Made by a program: the position numbers and the translations under genes. Below are positions 2,901-22,700 of a stretch of DNA of 64,000 nt, piece by piece (the first letter of the stretch is position 1; each line of letters begins with the position of its first letter). The stretch is from Escherichia phage P896. The stretch lies in the sequence record OL451225.1; one strand, given 5' to 3'. The notes below the pieces were generated by a model. It saw only the letters and a program-made list of their open reading frames with translations. It made no database searches and was not told where the DNA came from.

Positions 2901-3418
2901 TAATAACCTCGGTCTTGGCGAGCAAAGTTCTCGGCATTTTTCAGGTAATACAGTTTAAAGATTTCTTCTGCTGTCAGACCAAGACCATGGAACATATTCA
3001 GAACAAAGTGCAGGATATCAATCATTTCGAATTTAATTTCGAGCTGGTCTTCAGGAGACAATTCATCAATACGACGATTACGGAATTCAGCATGTTGCGC
3101 TTTCCACGGCTTCCAGCAACTGGATGCGGCTTTCTCACCATTAGACATGCCACCGAGCGAAGTCAGAAGTTCACGGAATTCGTCGTCGACATAATCTTTC
3201 TGGTTACGAAGCCATGCAACAACATCGCCTGCGGTTGCCAATTCATCTGGATGTGTGTTATATTCTGGTTTTTCTGTAGCCAGACGAACCTGCAAAGATT
3301 TCTGCATATCAAGCATAATCTGCAGAGGGTCATCATTGCCTTTTAGGACATCATTATACGCATCTTGCGCTTTATCAACACCAGCAATCAGTTGAGAACA
3401 CTCGTTAAAATGAGCCAT
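2900..3418 (-). CDS. 56: dCTP pyrophosphatase gp56 (MazG-like dCTPase/dUTPase)
   Basis: MAHFNEC...DPLQIMLDMQ...ETAGDVV...SPEDQLEIKFE...LYYLKNAENFARQD matches recalled T4 gp56; start set at second Met. Confidence 0.9.
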   Translation of the reverse strand: MAHFNECSQLIAGVDKAQDAYNDVLKGNDDPLQIMLDMQKSLQVRLATEKPEYNTHPDELATAGDVVAWLRNQKDYVDDEFRELLTSLGGMSNGEKAASSCWKPWKAQHAEFRNRRIDELSPEDQLEIKFEMIDILHFVLNMFHGLGLTAEEIFKLYYLKNAENFARQDRGY

Positions 3419-5056: not shown

Positions 5057-5248
5057 TTATACAACAAAGATAGCTTTATCACCATTTGCATCAGTCACTT
5101 CATAAGTGTCTTCATGATACAACGGAATAATCCAGGTAACACCATCATCAGCGATAACATGGATTGCTTCTTGGTCTTGCGACACGATTTCATATTCTTC
5201 AAAAAGCTGGAAGACCGAAATCTTAGAGCCCGTACACATTGCACTCAT
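5057..5248 (-). CDS. Hypothetical protein (63 aa)
   Basis: ORF track. Confidence 0.4.
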   Translation of the reverse strand: MSAMCTGSKISVFQLFEEYEIVSQDQEAIHVIADDGVTWIIPLYHEDTYEVTDANGDKAIFVV

Positions 5249-5444
5249 ATTGTTCCCTTCTTTTAATCAATTGACGATGTGCCTTTTTAAGTTTACGAAT
5301 CTGACGTTTAGTCGGTCGCGCAACGTAAGCTTGTGTAGTTACTCGTCCAAAAACACCATACTTAGGCGAAGGAGTATCAATAAAGACTTCCCACTGGCAA
5401 GAGTAACTATATATTGCTTTAGAGAATTGGGTCAAAACAAACAT
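5223..5444 (-). CDS. Hypothetical basic protein (73 aa)
   Basis: ORF track; start in TAATATG junction copied from the upstream paralog junction. Confidence 0.45.
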   Translation of the reverse strand: MFVLTQFSKAIYSYSCQWEVFIDTPSPKYGVFGRVTTQAYVARPTKRQIRKLKKAHRQLIKRREQYECNVYGL

Positions 5445-5445
5445 A

Positions 5446-5805
5446 TTAACCTCGCTTCATGAAGGCATTAAAAATCTGGTCATCAATATCAGTAGGCGGT
5501 TCTTGAGCTTTGACCCAAGCCCCTTCCAGAATGTCATTTGCTTCAGTAGATATCATGACCCCAATTTCAGGGTTTCCGGTTATCCAGGCTGCACAATCGC
5601 GGACATTCTTTTTATCAAATGGATAACCACGATTATCTTCACAAGGCCCATTCATTGTCATAAATGAACGAGCCTTTATGATAACATCATCTTTAACGAT
5701 AATATAACCAATCGCCTGATTAAACCGTGGCTCACGAAATTCATAATGGGCATTACCATCATTATTGCTCGCCAGTTCAAAATTCAGAAAATTATAATAA
5801 CTCAT
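5446..5805 (-). CDS. Hypothetical protein (119 aa), paralog family ending DDQIFNAFMKRG
   Basis: C-terminal 13 aa and ~45 nt junction near-identical to 5807..6241. Confidence 0.6.
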   Translation of the reverse strand: MSYYNFLNFELASNNDGNAHYEFREPRFNQAIGYIIVKDDVIIKARSFMTMNGPCEDNRGYPFDKKNVRDCAAWITGNPEIGVMISTEANDILEGAWVKAQEPPTDIDDQIFNAFMKRG

Positions 5806-5806
5806 A

Positions 5807-6241
5807 TTAATCTCGCTTCATGAAAGCATTAAAAATCTGGTCATCAACTGAATATACAGGGGTTTCCAGAAGTTTCAAAAGACTGTTTTTGATGTACTTA
5901 CCCGGGATACCCTTAACAATACTGTCATTCAACTCATTATCAGGGTTGATGTCTTTAAATTCAAACCCGTCAAACTCAACCTTGTCAGGAATACCGTCAG
6001 CGAAAAAATAAACCAATTGGTGCATTGTATTGCGCGAAAATAATTTAGACTTGACCGCAATAAGTTCTTGCCAATGGTTTAATTCTTTGTTAAGAAGTTT
6101 ATGAGCAAACGTAATTCTATTATCACTATCAACAAGAAAATAACCCAGGTATTGAATCTCGTCGCTCCAAAACACCCTGTATGCCTGCGCATTTGGATTT
6201 TTACAACGAAGTTTTTTGATAACCAAATTTCTGTTAATCAT
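5807..6241 (-). CDS. Hypothetical protein (144 aa), paralog family ending DDQIFNAFMKRD
   Basis: Start set at MINRNL (TAAAATG coupling to sp); shared C-terminus with 5446..5805. Confidence 0.55.
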   Translation of the reverse strand: MINRNLVIKKLRCKNPNAQAYRVFWSDEIQYLGYFLVDSDNRITFAHKLLNKELNHWQELIAVKSKLFSRNTMHQLVYFFADGIPDKVEFDGFEFKDINPDNELNDSIVKGIPGKYIKNSLLKLLETPVYSVDDQIFNAFMKRD

Positions 6242-6242
6242 T

Positions 6243-6536
6243 TTATTCACCTGTAACCCATTGAACAATTTTGCTATTGTCAAATGAAGCATCGCAATAC
6301 AGAATATAGTTATACTGCATAACGTCACCAGAAGACAATTGGTCAGATACTTCTTTAACCATATCAGGGCGGTCACGTTTGGTTATGTTCATGATATCAG
6401 CACGAATCTGGGTTTCAACTTCAGATTGCTCTGCTGTCATAGACCATTCACAAAGGTTTTTATCAAGCCCAGCAGTAACTGGAGCTGTACCACATGATGC
6501 TACGGTAAGAATTGCTGCAATAATTAACTTTTTCAT
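6243..6536 (-). CDS. sp: Spackle (Sp) periplasmic superinfection-exclusion protein
   Basis: 97 aa; signal peptide; LCEWSMTA...VETQI...DIMNI.KRDRP...MQYNY.LYCD matches recalled T4 Sp (61.3). Confidence 0.8.
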   Translation of the reverse strand: MKKLIIAAILTVASCGTAPVTAGLDKNLCEWSMTAEQSEVETQIRADIMNITKRDRPDMVKEVSDQLSSGDVMQYNYILYCDASFDNSKIVQWVTGE

Positions 6537-6600
6537 AATGTTCTCCTCAGTAGTTGATATGGATAATATACTGCATTATCCCTTTGATGTAAACTGTTAT
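6537..6600 (-). promoter_or_regulatory. T4-type early promoter + conserved leader (family A)
   Basis: Minus strand GTTTACA...TATATTATCC...ACTACTGAGGAGAA-ATG. Confidence 0.6.
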
Positions 6601-6800: not shown

Positions 6801-7118
6801 TTAGATTTCCTCACAAAACGCCCAGGCAGCGTGATAAACTGTTGCGCCTTTAGTATCATTTAAACAAACCACGTCAACAGGTGCAATCACACGATAAAGA
6901 CGGGGTTCTCCTCCATATGAGCGAGCTGCTCTTCCTGCATAGATACGCGCCAAACCAATATCTTCAGTAAAAAACACACGCCCTAAATTTTTCTTACGCC
7001 CAACTTCTGACAGAACACCAGTTGCATCAGGAGGACAAAGCATATTTTGGATTCCAGCATTAGAGCTTGACCCATGATAATAAACTTTGTATTCTGCCTT
7101 GCAATCAATGGTTTTCAT
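6801..7118 (-). CDS. Small protein (105 aa) with diphtheria-toxin/PARP-like NAD-binding motif (putative ADP-ribosyltransferase-fold)
   Basis: VYYHGSSS motif (cf. SYHGT of DT, GYHGT of exotoxin A) followed by aromatic-x9-Y (FFTEDIGLARIY); preceded by family A promoter. Confidence 0.45.
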   Translation of the reverse strand: MKTIDCKAEYKVYYHGSSSNAGIQNMLCPPDATGVLSEVGRKKNLGRVFFTEDIGLARIYAGRAARSYGGEPRLYRVIAPVDVVCLNDTKGATVYHAAWAFCEEI

Positions 7119-7186
7119 TTTATTCTCCAGTAGTTGATAGGGTCATTATAACATAAGAAAAAGGGGCTGTAAGCCCCTTTGTTCAC
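7119..7186 (-). promoter_or_regulatory. Terminator hairpin + early promoter/leader (family A variant)
   Basis: GGGGCT-GTAA-AGCCCC hairpin then CAGTAGTTGATAGGG leader. Confidence 0.5.
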
Positions 7187-7489
7187 TTACGCCAACTCAT
7201 AGTTGTGCATAGTCAGACAACGAATTTTCCCAGTAGTTGGGTGCATAACAGTCACACTAATTGTGTAATCATCGCACACGTTAACAAAAGGTTCAGCGAT
7301 AACATATACTGCCCCGCCTGCAAGCAGATACTCACGAAGAGAGCTGCGAACAGATGAAGGTTGAACATCGCTTTTGAGCTTTATTAATTTACCAGTTTGA
7401 ATGCCTGATGCGATAAGAGCAGCACAGTTTTCATCACGGCGAGCGAATTGTCCAAAATAGTAACGATTCATATCGGTTTGATTAAACAT
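7187..7489 (-). CDS. Hypothetical protein (100 aa)
   Basis: ORF track; family B promoter upstream. Confidence 0.55.
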   Translation of the reverse strand: MFNQTDMNRYYFGQFARRDENCAALIASGIQTGKLIKLKSDVQPSSVRSSLREYLLAGGAVYVIAEPFVNVCDDYTISVTVMHPTTGKIRCLTMHNYELA

Positions 7490-7567: not shown

Positions 7568-7816
7568 CTATTTTAATTCATTAATTAAATGAAAATCTTG
7601 TGCATTGAAAGTAATGAAAAAATAATCATTCCCTTCAACTGAAGCATGACAGGCAACACTACACCAGCGCCTTGCTCTGTTCAAGGAGCAATCCAAAATT
7701 TTAAAAGGCTTCAGACCAACAATGGCAGCTGTTCTTTTATTATGCTCACAAATATCAGCATACTTTTGGAGAGCTTCTTCAGATTTGAACTGGTAATGCA
7801 CATTAACTAATAACAT
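7568..7816 (-). CDS. Hypothetical protein (82 aa), Cys-containing
   Basis: ORF track; family A promoter upstream. Confidence 0.55.
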   Translation of the reverse strand: MLLVNVHYQFKSEEALQKYADICEHNKRTAAIVGLKPFKILDCSLNRARRWCSVACHASVEGNDYFFITFNAQDFHLINELK

Positions 7817-7906
7817 TTTATTATCCTCATCAGTAGTTGATGGGATAATAGTACACCCTTTTTATGAGGATGTAAACCCCTAAATGAAAAAAGGTCCACC
7901 CGAAGG
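7817..7906 (-). promoter_or_regulatory. Terminator hairpin (after gene 41) + early promoter/leader (family A)
   Basis: AAAGGTCCACCCGAAGGGTCTTT hairpin; GTTTACATCCTCAT...TATTATCCCATCAACTACTGATGAGGA. Confidence 0.65.
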
Positions 7907-11901: not shown

Positions 11902-14616
11902 TTAAAAATCAAACATATCAAAAAGAGTTGCTTTCTTTTCGTAATCAACCTTTGCAGCTTCGGAGAAACCTGTTAATGGCTTAACAAAAGTCTTCTGGAA
12001 CAGTGTGTTGTAGTCCATCCACTGCAGAACCTGGTCACGGATTTCAATCGGGAGTTCAATCCCAGATGGCCATGCAATCACGGTTTCACCAAACGGGTTG
12101 CCGACTTTGAGCGGAAGTACATACACCTTTTCCCCTTCCATGATTTGCGGAACAGTCTTCAGACCTTTAGTTGCACGCATATATGCAAGCACACCTTTGA
12201 TATGAGCCGGACACTTAAATCCAGGGAAACCGCCTTCATTATATTTCTGGATGTTGTTAACCGATGATACACCTGCGATGGTCATGTAGTTAAGCTCATT
12301 AAATTCCTTATTGAATTCCTTGAAGTATGTCTGCAGAGATTCTTCACCTTCTTGCAGCATACGGCGGATACATTCTTTCAGAGCTTTCTGACATGCCTTT
12401 GGAGTACTCGACTTTTGAGTTTCCAGACCCATGATTTTCAGTTTCGGAACAGCATATCGTGTGCCTTCCATATCGTACACGTTCAACGCATAACGCTTCT
12501 TCGCTGTCCAGAATCCACCAACACCCTTCGAACCCAGTGGAGGACATGCAATCGCCTCACGGTCCATAAACATAAGGTGCTGTTTGTTGTTCATGTATTC
12601 AGCCAGCTCACGGAAAGCTTTATCGATTGCCGGTTCCAGACGGTCTTTCGCAAACTTGTCCATGAAGTCAACCAGGTGGTTTGTATCGCGGAATTTAGAT
12701 TCACCACCAACCTTTTTAATCAGGTTATCGCACTGGATATAAATGGAGTCAGTGTCACCATAGAATACGTAGGTTTCGCCGCTTGTCCCACAGACACTAT
12801 CGAAGTATTCGTTAACTTTACGCTCAATCCACTGCAATGCAAGTTGTCCGAAAGATGTAATCGCGGTTGCATTTCGCAGGTCAAAGTAACGGAACCATAT
12901 ATTGCCCAGAGCGCCATAACAACTGTTGATAAGCAGTTTACGGTTAATCTGTGCGGTCATGCCTGCAACTTCTTCCATCTGCGCTTTGTACAGCATACCA
13001 TTTAGGACTGTTTGATTCAGACCATGCAGGGCCGTTTTCATATTGTCATCAAAGTCATGACGATAATCAACTTCAGGCTCGGTTGTACCAGTTCCTGGAT
13101 TACGCAGAGCTTCCTTAATCAGTTCACCATTACGTTGAGCCGCAAGCATATAGCCTTTGTGTTCTTTACGCTGATTAAACACCTTGGTGACTTCTGTCGG
13201 AATAATACCCGCAACATCTTTAAAATACATCATACCATTTGGAGCACAACTAAATGTATCAGATGGACGGTCAGCAGTTCCTGCAATGTATTCGTACATC
13301 GGCGCTGGCGCAAATGACCCGGCAATCGTTTCTGGACTGATGTTAATCTGTCGGATAATGCTTGGATACAGAGATGTTAAGTCACAGCTCATTACATATT
13401 TGTATGCGTTCGGAATCGGTTCCTTAACAAATGCACCAGGGAACGATTGGCGAACATGTGATTTGGTTTCCGGAATGACTTTGTTTTGAGTCTTCAGGCT
13501 GTTAAAGATAATCGCATCCCAAGTTTTGATTGGGCTGAATACAGACTGAATCTGCATTTTTGCATAATAACCCATTGACTGGCTCAGGTTAATAAACTGC
13601 CGCTTACGGTCAATCTGCACAACACGATAAACGTCGATGATGTTATAAGAAATATACCGCTGGTGATTTGATTCACGCAGTTTAGAAATCGGGCCATCAT
13701 ACGGGAGTTTACCAACACCCAGTTCAGATTCCGCAACATAATCCAACGAATAAGACGGTTGGTTTGTGAAGCTGAACTTTTTATACAGGTCCAGATAATC
13801 CAGAACAGAGATACCCAGAATCTGAATGATTTCTTGTTCTTCACCAAAGCCGTTGTTAATGACTTTAACTTTTGTACGACGATGTGGGCTCAGACGTTTT
13901 GCCGTAGCTTCACCAAATACATTTTTAAGGCGGTTGTAGATATATGGAATATCAAACTTCTCGATGTTCCAACCAGTTAACATAACCGGAGTTTTCTCGT
14001 TCCAGAATACCAAATACTGCTGGAGCATTTCTTCTTCTGAATCGAAAGCCATATAAACAATTTTTTCCAGGATTTCTTCCGGGACTTCATCACCACCATC
14101 TTCCTGCAGCTTAGCAGCAATATCAATAGACCATTGCTCCACAGTGGCGTATGGTGAGCCCAAAAGGTCAAAGACATAGAATTTATCGTCTACCGAATCA
14201 TAGTGCGTCAGGGCGTCAATAGGGTGACGTGCTTCAGACGGCTCAGGGAACCCATCAGGAGATGTCACCTCGATATCGAAGTTAGCCACACGGATTTTAC
14301 TTGAATCGTATTTGATTTCGTGCGGGTAACGGTCGGACAAGTATGCGAGTTTAAAGTCGTCCATGCCCATGGCTTCGAGGCCCATGTCATTCATTCGCTT
14401 CATCCACTGGGATGCATCACGCATGGAATCGAATTCTTTTTTCACACAACCTTTATTATAGATGTCTGTATACTTTGCAGCTTGGTCTTCACGGGCGTGC
14501 ATAAACAAGCATGGAGCATAAGGGATTTCACGAACACGTTCATGACCATTCTTGTCAATATATCGTTCGTGTAGGTTGTCACCGATTTGTTCGATAGTTA
14601 AATAAAATTCTTGCAT
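11902..14616 (-). CDS. 43: DNA polymerase gp43 (family B)
   Basis: 904 aa; exonuclease motifs (FDIE), polymerase motifs (DxxSLYPS, YGDTDS). Confidence 0.97.
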   Translation of the reverse strand: MQEFYLTIEQIGDNLHERYIDKNGHERVREIPYAPCLFMHAREDQAAKYTDIYNKGCVKKEFDSMRDASQWMKRMNDMGLEAMGMDDFKLAYLSDRYPHEIKYDSSKIRVANFDIEVTSPDGFPEPSEARHPIDALTHYDSVDDKFYVFDLLGSPYATVEQWSIDIAAKLQEDGGDEVPEEILEKIVYMAFDSEEEMLQQYLVFWNEKTPVMLTGWNIEKFDIPYIYNRLKNVFGEATAKRLSPHRRTKVKVINNGFGEEQEIIQILGISVLDYLDLYKKFSFTNQPSYSLDYVAESELGVGKLPYDGPISKLRESNHQRYISYNIIDVYRVVQIDRKRQFINLSQSMGYYAKMQIQSVFSPIKTWDAIIFNSLKTQNKVIPETKSHVRQSFPGAFVKEPIPNAYKYVMSCDLTSLYPSIIRQINISPETIAGSFAPAPMYEYIAGTADRPSDTFSCAPNGMMYFKDVAGIIPTEVTKVFNQRKEHKGYMLAAQRNGELIKEALRNPGTGTTEPEVDYRHDFDDNMKTALHGLNQTVLNGMLYKAQMEEVAGMTAQINRKLLINSCYGALGNIWFRYFDLRNATAITSFGQLALQWIERKVNEYFDSVCGTSGETYVFYGDTDSIYIQCDNLIKKVGGESKFRDTNHLVDFMDKFAKDRLEPAIDKAFRELAEYMNNKQHLMFMDREAIACPPLGSKGVGGFWTAKKRYALNVYDMEGTRYAVPKLKIMGLETQKSSTPKACQKALKECIRRMLQEGEESLQTYFKEFNKEFNELNYMTIAGVSSVNNIQKYNEGGFPGFKCPAHIKGVLAYMRATKGLKTVPQIMEGEKVYVLPLKVGNPFGETVIAWPSGIELPIEIRDQVLQWMDYNTLFQKTFVKPLTGFSEAAKVDYEKKATLFDMFDF

Positions 14617-21925: not shown

Positions 21926-22177
21926 TTAATCCTTGGGAGTTAACTCAATTGTAAAATATAGATTAGCATTATCCACATGATAACGGTAATCAACGTTATT
22001 ATCCGGTGAAGTAAATTCCAGATTCCGGACGTTTAAAGGGTCGATATCAATTGGAAGACCTTTTATGTCTCGCAGATAAAGTTTAATGAAATATGGGAGC
22101 GCCGTAAAGTCTTCCTCGATTTTATCTAAAAAATCGGTAATATCAAATTGATGTTCCATATAAAAAATCCAAATCAC
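21926..22177 (-). CDS. Hypothetical protein (83 aa)
   Basis: ORF track. Confidence 0.5.
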
Positions 22178-22700
22178 CCTCTTTATCTTTGGCGCTCTTA
22201 TCAGACCCTGGCGCTTTAACTAAGGAGGATTCGTACTGTGTCATTTTGTCGTAGATGTCCTGGATAAATGTTTCATCAGCCAGAGCCACCATATCGTCAT
22301 CACGTGAATCGTATACGTTATGGACGAAGTAGCTATATTTCTTTGCCATTTCTTTACGTTCTTTTTTGATACGCTGAACGAAAGCATTGAAGCAAGCCAT
22401 TGTTATGTAAGCATGTGGATTATCGTATTTTGTTTCGTCGAAGTTGTGAAGACCTTTTATTGCGGCCTCAATTCCGTCCGCTATCATTTCTTGCTTCCAG
22501 GATTGGGTATATCCGGAGAAGTTGAAACGTTTGCTAAGACCTTCGGCTATAAGCATAATCGCCAGACCAATAACATCGTTCTGGCGAATAATTTTGTTCG
22601 GGTCAGTGTTCGCATTCAGCTTCTGTTTCCACTCCGAAATAGCTTTCAAAAGCTCTTTATTATTTACATAGTTATTCTTGGTTAATTTAATTTCGTTCAT
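22143..22700 (-). CDS. 55: Late sigma factor gp55
   Basis: 185 aa as T4 gp55; sigma region-2-like segment; position upstream of 47. Confidence 0.88.

Follow-up and report, generated by a model that had tools for sequence, protein, structure and literature searches.

The spackle-to-primase region analyzed here probably carries tandem, diverged, single-domain paralogs of the anti-DarT factor AdfA, with a shared C-terminal tail that would act both as a functional motif and as a recombination boundary within an island of anti-toxin-antitoxin (anti-TA) genes. The window, that is, the whole stretch of 64,000 nucleotides from Escherichia phage P896 (OL451225.1), derives from an SP18-like T-even phage, the region being 96.7% identical to Shigella phage SP18 (T-even, genus Gaprivervirus). 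The genes on the minus strand follow the order gp41 helicase, 3 small open reading frames (ORFs), dmd, sp (spackle), F144, F119, a gene for a 73-aa DUF7279 protein, a 63-aa ORF, 61.1, and gp61 primase. F144 (5807-6241, minus strand) encodes a 144-aa protein of phrog_8539, the JS98 gp030 family, which ends in SVDDQIFNAFMKRD and consists of one beta-rich domain, 30 C-terminal residues that are conserved but modeled with low confidence, and the tail. F119 (5446-5805, minus strand) encodes a 119-aa protein of phrog_4122, the "RB32ORF033c" family, which ends in DIDDQIFNAFMKRG and comprises one domain, a linker, and the tail helix. Both PHROG matches are full length (F119, residues 1-119, E = 8.8e-53; F144, residues 1-144, E = 2.2e-90), and neither PHROG carries a functional annotation. 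The sp gene (6243-6536, minus strand) forms the conserved left flank and directly precedes every tail-bearing gene array that we found. On the other side, the DUF7279 gene (5223-5444, minus strand) encodes a protein with 39% identity to T4 gp61.4, which is also a DUF7279 protein; gene 61.4 is tifA, encoding a ToxN inhibitor (PMC9391042), and we accordingly refer to the window gene as TifA-like.

The feature that connects the two genes is a repeat of 45 nucleotides, present on the minus strand at 5803-5847 (copy A) and 5442-5486 (copy B), with 43 of 45 positions being the same: TTGATGACCAGATTTTTAATGC[T/C]TTCATGAAGCGAG[A/G]TTAATATG. The 2 mismatches are GCC/GCT and GGT/GAT (copy B/copy A). A reading made from the sequence alone (hereinafter, the sequence-only reading) had placed about 45 near-identical nucleotides in two intervals of 49 (5442-5490 and 5803-5851); the near-identical DNA is real, but the intervals have to be shortened to 45, since similarity between the copies breaks off sharply upstream. 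When the 64-kb window was scanned with up to 3 mismatches, the repeat occurred at these two sites only, and none of 100 dinucleotide-preserving shuffles produced a match, so that the nucleotide identity is significant. Copy A contains the last 12 codons of F144 (VDDQIFNAFMKRD), its TAA stop (5807-5809), a single T (5806), and the ATG of F119 (5803-5805). Copy B is built in the same way from the last 12 codons of F119 (IDDQIFNAFMKRG), the TAA stop (5446-5448), a single T (5445), and the ATG with which the TifA-like gene starts (5442-5444). Thus, as first described, both copies encode the same C-terminal peptide, [VI]DDQIFNAFMKR[DG], followed by TAA-T-ATG, which includes the start codon of the next gene; all this can be read directly on the minus strand.

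The end of the tail has a second role at the nucleotide level. The Arg-Gly codons of copy B, CGA GGT, contain a GAGG Shine-Dalgarno sequence (5450-5453, minus strand) located 5 nucleotides before the ATG of the TifA-like gene, and the equivalent of copy A (5811-5814) is the weaker GAGA. Hence, the last codons and the stop (CGA-GGT-TAA-T-ATG) constitute the ribosome-binding site and start of the next gene, which makes the junction a portable part of each gene, whereas the earlier codons of the tail have no such second job. Translation of each downstream gene would initiate at the ribosome-binding site that lies within the tail of its predecessor, with translational coupling between the neighbors. 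No good promoter or terminator was found at the junctions. An early-type promoter, TTTACA-17-TATATT (6565-6593, minus strand), is located upstream of sp and is the likely source of a transcript spanning sp, F144, F119, and the TifA-like gene, which would then be transcribed together.

The tail is confined to a small set of proteins. All members of the AdfA, F119, and F144 families carry the consensus [SD][IV]DDQIFNAFM[NK]R[GD], and an exhaustive HMMER search of 1.84e9 representative proteins with a tail-centred profile retrieved 9 proteins at E <= 0.001, 8 of which belong to these 3 families, the remaining one being an unrelated repeat protein matched outside the tail. We conclude that the tail is specific to this gene set and locus. 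QIFNAFM is invariant in all 83 distinct tail-bearing proteins, and the flanking positions are nearly so (S in 74 of 83, [IV], DD in 81, R in 80, and G in 74), while the identity between the bodies is approximately 20% between families and reaches 46% between F119 subtypes. By contrast, the codons used for the tail vary by genus (CAA/CAG, ATT/ATA, GCT/GCC/GCA/GCG, TTT/TTC, and AGA/CGA), and 5 of 8 synonymous sites distinguish the two tails found together in one metagenomic genome (locus L061), which encode the same peptide core. Fixation of QIFNAFM while synonymous sites drift points to purifying selection on the peptide. Accordingly, one suggestion of the sequence-only reading, that the repeat represents a conserved functional tag, fits the presence of the same invariant peptide on 3 families, including AdfA, although the function itself is inferred. 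Most likely, the tail is a putative short motif through which all 3 families would bind one common partner.

Could the conservation instead reflect an RNA or transcription signal, such as mRNA structure or a MotA-type middle promoter controlling the downstream gene? In T4, the consensus of such promoters is TGCTTTTA, 11 nucleotides, and TAATAT. The Tequatrovirus tail AATGCTTTTATGAATAGAGGTTAATATG indeed resembles a MotA box followed by a -10 element, and the GAGG ribosome-binding site genuinely lies within the last codons. However, the third position of the Ala codon, which would fall in the MotA core, is T, C, A, or G depending on the genus, the ribosome-binding site covers only the last 2 to 3 codons, and the early and middle promoters marked in the record of phage fPS-2 all lie away from the tail. 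Furthermore, the folding z-scores of 4 junctions range from -0.64 to +1.06, and there is no Rfam match. We therefore regard a nucleic acid signal of this kind as most improbable.

Within a lineage, the tails are also alike at the DNA level. Within the window, 1 of the 11 shared codons differs between copies A and B, and the probability of at most 1 codon mismatch by independent draws from the codon usage of the phage itself is 0.005, indicating that the DNA identity of the copies exceeds what peptide conservation alone explains. More broadly, in the 27-nucleotide core of the tail, synonymous differences average 1.3 for tails of different families from one genus and 2.6 to 3.0 for tails from different genera, a comparison that involves only 8 synonymous sites, strong codon bias, and non-independent genomes. 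Tail DNA thus groups by phage genus rather than by protein family, and the 60 nucleotides upstream cannot be aligned between families.

Comparison of related genomes places the breakpoints of gene gain, loss, and replacement at the tail. Phage VR26 lacks a unit of 361 bp consisting of the F119 body and one tail (5487-5847 or, equivalently, 5442-5802, minus strand): the VR26 alignments of window segments 6615-5803 and 5486-3800 overlap on the single 45-nucleotide tail of that phage, so that the two repeats mark the exact limits of the indel. The pattern in the SP18/VR group fits insertion and deletion of the F119 unit equally well. In another genus, the F119 unit of AR1 is likewise missing from T4 exactly between the tails. 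Replacement follows the same boundary, as illustrated by T4 and T2: their flanking sequences are 97.5% to 97.8% identical as far as the sp stop, and this level of identity returns at the first base of the tail; in between, T4 has an AdfA body of 580 nucleotides and T2 an F119 body of 323 nucleotides, with no DNA similarity between them. Across Tequatrovirus, the tail adjoining 61.1 is always of the "NRG/AGA" type, whatever body precedes it, and the AdfA tail of tandem arrays is "NKG/AAA". T4 deletes and amplifies sequences on homologies of 2 to 10 bp (PMC9391042), and a 45-bp direct repeat with a spacing of 361 bp is therefore a ready substrate. The module swap around a conserved junction that had been proposed from the sequence alone is thus borne out with respect to presence/absence and body replacement, which break exactly at the tail, but probably not with respect to the bodies being unrelated (see below).

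These observations also bear on whether the 45 nucleotides are mainly a DNA-level recombination linker, akin to the homology blocks known as PeSLs, with a peptide that has no function of its own and is conserved through repeated gene conversion only. The position of the indel and replacement breakpoints, the fact that within a genus the tails of different families are as alike as orthologous tails, the within-genome identity above the codon-usage expectation (P = 0.005), and the capacity of T4 to recombine on short homologies (PMC9391042) are all in line with such a linker. Yet a pure DNA element would not be expected to fix the peptide and leave third positions free, and synonymous sites differ between genera, as well as at 5 of 8 sites in L061, while QIFNAFM is constant in 83 proteins; moreover, the repeat contains neither a promoter nor a hairpin. 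A purely DNA-level origin of the conservation is thus quite improbable, and we favor a peptide under selection that doubles as a recombination boundary.

Whether the bodies preceding the tail are related is less apparent. In BLASTP, F119 and F144 align over the last 27 residues and nowhere else. With the tails kept, hhalign also aligns only the tail between F119 and F144, but places F119 onto AdfA residues 126-210 and F144 onto residues 110-210 with a probability of 97%. After removal of the last 14 residues and addition of subtypes, all pairs became co-linear, with P-values of 2e-4 to 4e-2 compared to 0.12-0.76 for reversed controls; these tail-less values come from shallow profiles (Neff of approximately 1.6-2). 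Among these values were those of F119 against the N-terminal half of AdfA (P = 2.4e-4), F119 against the C-terminal half (P = 4.8e-3), and F144 against the C-terminal half (P = 7.4e-3), and an earlier truncation by 16 residues gave P-values of 6e-4 to 0.02. The matches center on the motif G[YFG][IF][IFLV]V.[DN]..I and the helix that follows; the motif is present in all 3 families and occurs twice in AdfA. The two halves of AdfA align weakly with each other (P = 0.008), which, together with the doubled motif, suggests that AdfA is a fused duplicate of a domain that is single in F119 and F144. An internal repeat is also visible in T4 AdfA (L049), between residues ~78-94 (FNHDNLVHIEGVGFDIS) and ~157-173 (FTENIINHIASVYFDID), and a GxxFVKDN motif is likewise doubled in AdfA.

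Structural models point in the same direction. The AlphaFold models of F119 and F144, which were built on shallower alignments, show the same order of secondary structure elements, namely, five strands, a helix, and a strand. In Foldseek searches against the viral structure library BFVD, the best or second-best match of each protein outside its own family was the other family, with reciprocal matches at a probability of 1.0 and TM-scores of approximately 0.45-0.56, in alignments that contain the identical tail and have a high rmsd. One of the Foldseek matches, A0A449C4E3 of Yersinia phage fPS-65 (157 aa), might represent an AdfA with its start called at Met52, but the record of the related phage fPS-2 annotates the full 208 aa, and this match does not enter the argument.

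Taken together, the profiles, the order of secondary structure elements, and the Foldseek matches make it likely that the F119, F144, and AdfA bodies are remote, very diverged paralogs. The alternative, namely, that 3 unrelated proteins each gained the same C-terminal tag by fusion, in a case of true domain shuffling, would account for the tail-only alignments of F119 and F144 in BLASTP and hhalign, for the separation of the 3 families in PHROG and Pfam, and for the mosaic-like appearance of a distant F144 member (P0044), the body of which is 37% identical with the last 30 aa unchanged. It would not, however, account for tail-less profile matches that are co-linear in all pairs and better than reversed controls, for a motif common to the 3 families and repeated in AdfA, or for the same strand and helix order in both models and the reciprocal Foldseek matches, and we consider it unlikely. 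Hence, although BLASTP does see the tail only, the premise of the sequence-only reading that the bodies are unrelated is probably wrong. The same reading had named full-length paralogs of an ordinary family as an outcome that would refute it; diverged paralogs of the AdfA family are indeed likely, but this family is not an ordinary one. Conservation of its tail far exceeds that of the bodies, and neither BLAST nor the Pfam threshold reveals the paralogy.

AdfA, the product of gene 61.2 in T4 and RB69, is known to bind and neutralize DarT (PMC11257639). The Pfam AdfA profile (PF23813) matches both ORFs of the window at positions 198-211 of 211 only, that is, at the tail, with scores (20.5 bits for F119 and 13.1 bits for F144) below the gathering cut-off of 27; by the Pfam criterion, F119 and F144 are not AdfA members. 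What the two do have in common with AdfA members is the tail, DDQIFNAFM[NK]RG, and a place in a gene array directly downstream of sp. In addition, phrog_3781 (AdfA), phrog_4122, and phrog_8539 cross-match via tail residues, and the primer used for the end of RB69 adfA encodes ...IFNAFMNRG followed by the stop (PMC11257639). NCBIfam yielded no match, T4 AdfA included, and no relative of AdfA was found in the PDB. The similarities between F119/F144 and AdfA accordingly comprise the slot directly after spackle, the identical tail, the stop/start junction, and probably a remotely similar body, including the helix with residue 164, which determines DarT1 binding specificity (PMC11257639). The differences lie in size and divergence, with AdfA (208-216 aa) looking like two domain copies and F119 and F144 having a single domain and body identity of about 20%.

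The slot downstream of sp is occupied differently in different phages. Directly after sp, T4 has AdfA and 61.1; T2 has F119 and 61.1; AR1, Sf21, and one IMG/VR contig have AdfA, F119, and 61.1; JS10 and MX01 have arrays that start with F144; and the window phage, SP18, and VR7 have F144, F119, and the TifA-like gene, whereas Klebsiella phage KP1 has none of the 3 families at this place. Three further metagenomic variants adjoin sp on its downstream side, namely, F144 relatives with 37% and 57% identity and a third F119 subtype. Across 50,697 phage records, the junction was counted at 818 places in 572 records, and the bodies were found in 487 (AdfA), 332 (F119), and 85 (F144) records, compared to 896 records for sp. 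Other searches added little: when IMG/VR was scanned with degenerate DNA versions of the tail, few T-even contigs and many chance matches in non-coding frames came back, of use only as extra loci; a word-indexed protein search with F119 retrieved close relatives only; and the output of a tail-alignment search consisted mostly of truncated gene calls. Two of the loci are irregular near the tail. Phage DCP80 (L060, PQ671644.1), which matches the window at the junction with 100% identity, has 4 junction copies and, from position 3039, after an F119 tail, switches to clamp-loader genes on the opposite strand, probably owing to misassembly or to a rearrangement at the repeat. The gene for the third F119 subtype (125 aa, P0054; L063, 3360-3392) ends in a tandem duplication of 9 nucleotides, AGAGGCTAA AGAGGCTAA, and the next start is 8 nucleotides farther from the stop.

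T2 has been reported to be without adfA (PMC11257639), and in its genome F119 fills the adfA slot. The upstream gene is gone, but TAGAGGTTAGTATG still stands before F119. In T2 (L050, 2159-2190), the segment from the sp stop to the F119 start has kept TTAGAGGTTAGTATG, which resembles the final 14 nucleotides of the vanished upstream tail, with the ribosome-binding site retained. The T2 record starts F119 at a later ATG, giving a product of 108 rather than 118 aa.

The locus has counterparts among described systems. An anti-TA island has been proposed for T4 dmd/61.5, tifA/61.4, and adfA/61.2 (Srikant et al. 2022, PMC9391042), and in the window dmd, sp, two AdfA-like genes, and the TifA-like gene similarly lie together between gp41 and gp61, in a single early-transcribed block. 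The set of genes and their order are not those of T4, however: the TifA-like gene of the window is downstream of the AdfA-like genes, whereas T4 tifA is upstream of sp, and the window has 3 further small upstream ORFs of no assigned function. Two island ORFs on the minus strand, 6801-7118 (105 aa) and 7187-7489 (100 aa), have no Pfam match and are candidate anti-toxin genes because of their neighborhood. Tail-delimited cassettes of paralogs are not part of the idea published for T4. The second counterpart is the PeSL, an intergenic cassette of an early promoter and a stem-loop that provides crossover points in hyperplastic regions of T4-type genomes (Arbiol et al. 2010, PMC2839356; Comeau et al. 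2014, PMC4122927). In both cases, short conserved sequences flank variable genes, and crossovers enable modular shuffling. Unlike PeSLs, which are intergenic, the window block consists of a coding tail, a ribosome-binding site, and a start codon; it contains no promoter or terminator and folds no better than shuffles. PeSL-like units are found near the tail: 3 early-type promoters on the minus strand (6536-6593, 7113-7180, and 7816-7876) lie upstream of sp, the 105-aa ORF (6801-7118), and an 82-aa ORF (7568-7816), respectively, each being followed by a shared 5'UTR/ribosome-binding block, ATCAACTACTG[A/G]GGAG...ATG. A GC-rich hairpin (7160-7180) lies ahead of the middle promoter and gives it the appearance of a PeSL-like promoter-terminator composite.

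As to the partner of the tail, the best sequence lead is the gp45 sliding clamp, the alternative being a conserved toxin pocket, in which the tail would be a "warhead". The C-terminal gp45-binding motifs of T4-type gp43 and gp55 consist, as does the tail, of a short aromatic and acidic end after a flexible segment. In the window, the DNA polymerase gp43 (11902-14616, minus strand) is of the RB69 type and ends in KKATLFDMFDF, and gp55 (22143-22700, minus strand) also has a C-terminal aromatic/acidic motif; IFNAF of the tail resembles LFDMF of gp43 over 5 residues, and only gp43, gp55, F119, and F144 in the window show the C-terminal pattern, which was devised post hoc. The alignment of IFNAF to the (S/T)LDFL(F/Y) form of the motif, SLDFLF and SLDFLY in T4, is ambiguous, and the resemblance serves as a lead rather than as a classification. 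A match to the E. coli beta-clamp motif, QLxLF, was rejected, the tail having Asn at the key fourth position. A membrane-targeting amphipathic helix was likewise discarded, with the hydrophobic moment of 0.39 being reached by 39% of shuffles. The low pLDDT of the tail helix (approximately 50) is compatible with a binding motif, and equally with plain model uncertainty. A tail that docks the AdfA-family paralogs to one partner, be it gp45 or a toxin pocket, with the bodies giving toxin specificity, is a tentative and rather unlikely possibility, but if gp45 docking were true, anti-DarT-type inhibitors would be placed at replication forks, where the ssDNA substrate of DarT is exposed.

Our results suggest the following scenario for the AdfA-like genes. 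The tail, following a flexible linker and including invariant polar residues, is held by strong purifying selection. With approximately 45 nucleotides, it is the only DNA common to these genes, so that homologous recombination would use it for crossover: recombination between tails would delete or insert the F119 unit, crossovers in spackle and the tail would swap one body for another, and tail recombination would keep the DNA of the tails of different genes near-identical within a lineage. F119 and F144 are candidate anti-toxin factors similar to AdfA that may deviate from it in specificity; the two differ in the helix that aligns with AdfA residue 164. AdfA itself, the anti-TA island, T4 recombination on short homologies, and PeSL shuffling have already been published. 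By contrast, we found no prior description of F119 ("RB32ORF033c") and F144 (the JS98 gp030 family) as AdfA-like proteins that share a tail, of F119 in the adfA slot of T2, or of the tail as a cassette boundary.

AdfA is among the few characterized phage inhibitors of toxin-antitoxin defence, and our findings suggest that at least 3 related gene families make up a polymorphic array in the adfA slot. In phages scored as being without adfA, T2 for example, a single-domain relative occupies the slot, which provides candidate new anti-toxin factors, and the invariant tail of 7 to 13 residues is an easily testable functional motif. More generally, the locus illustrates how constraint at the protein level may create the DNA homology that phages use to shuffle their counter-defence genes.
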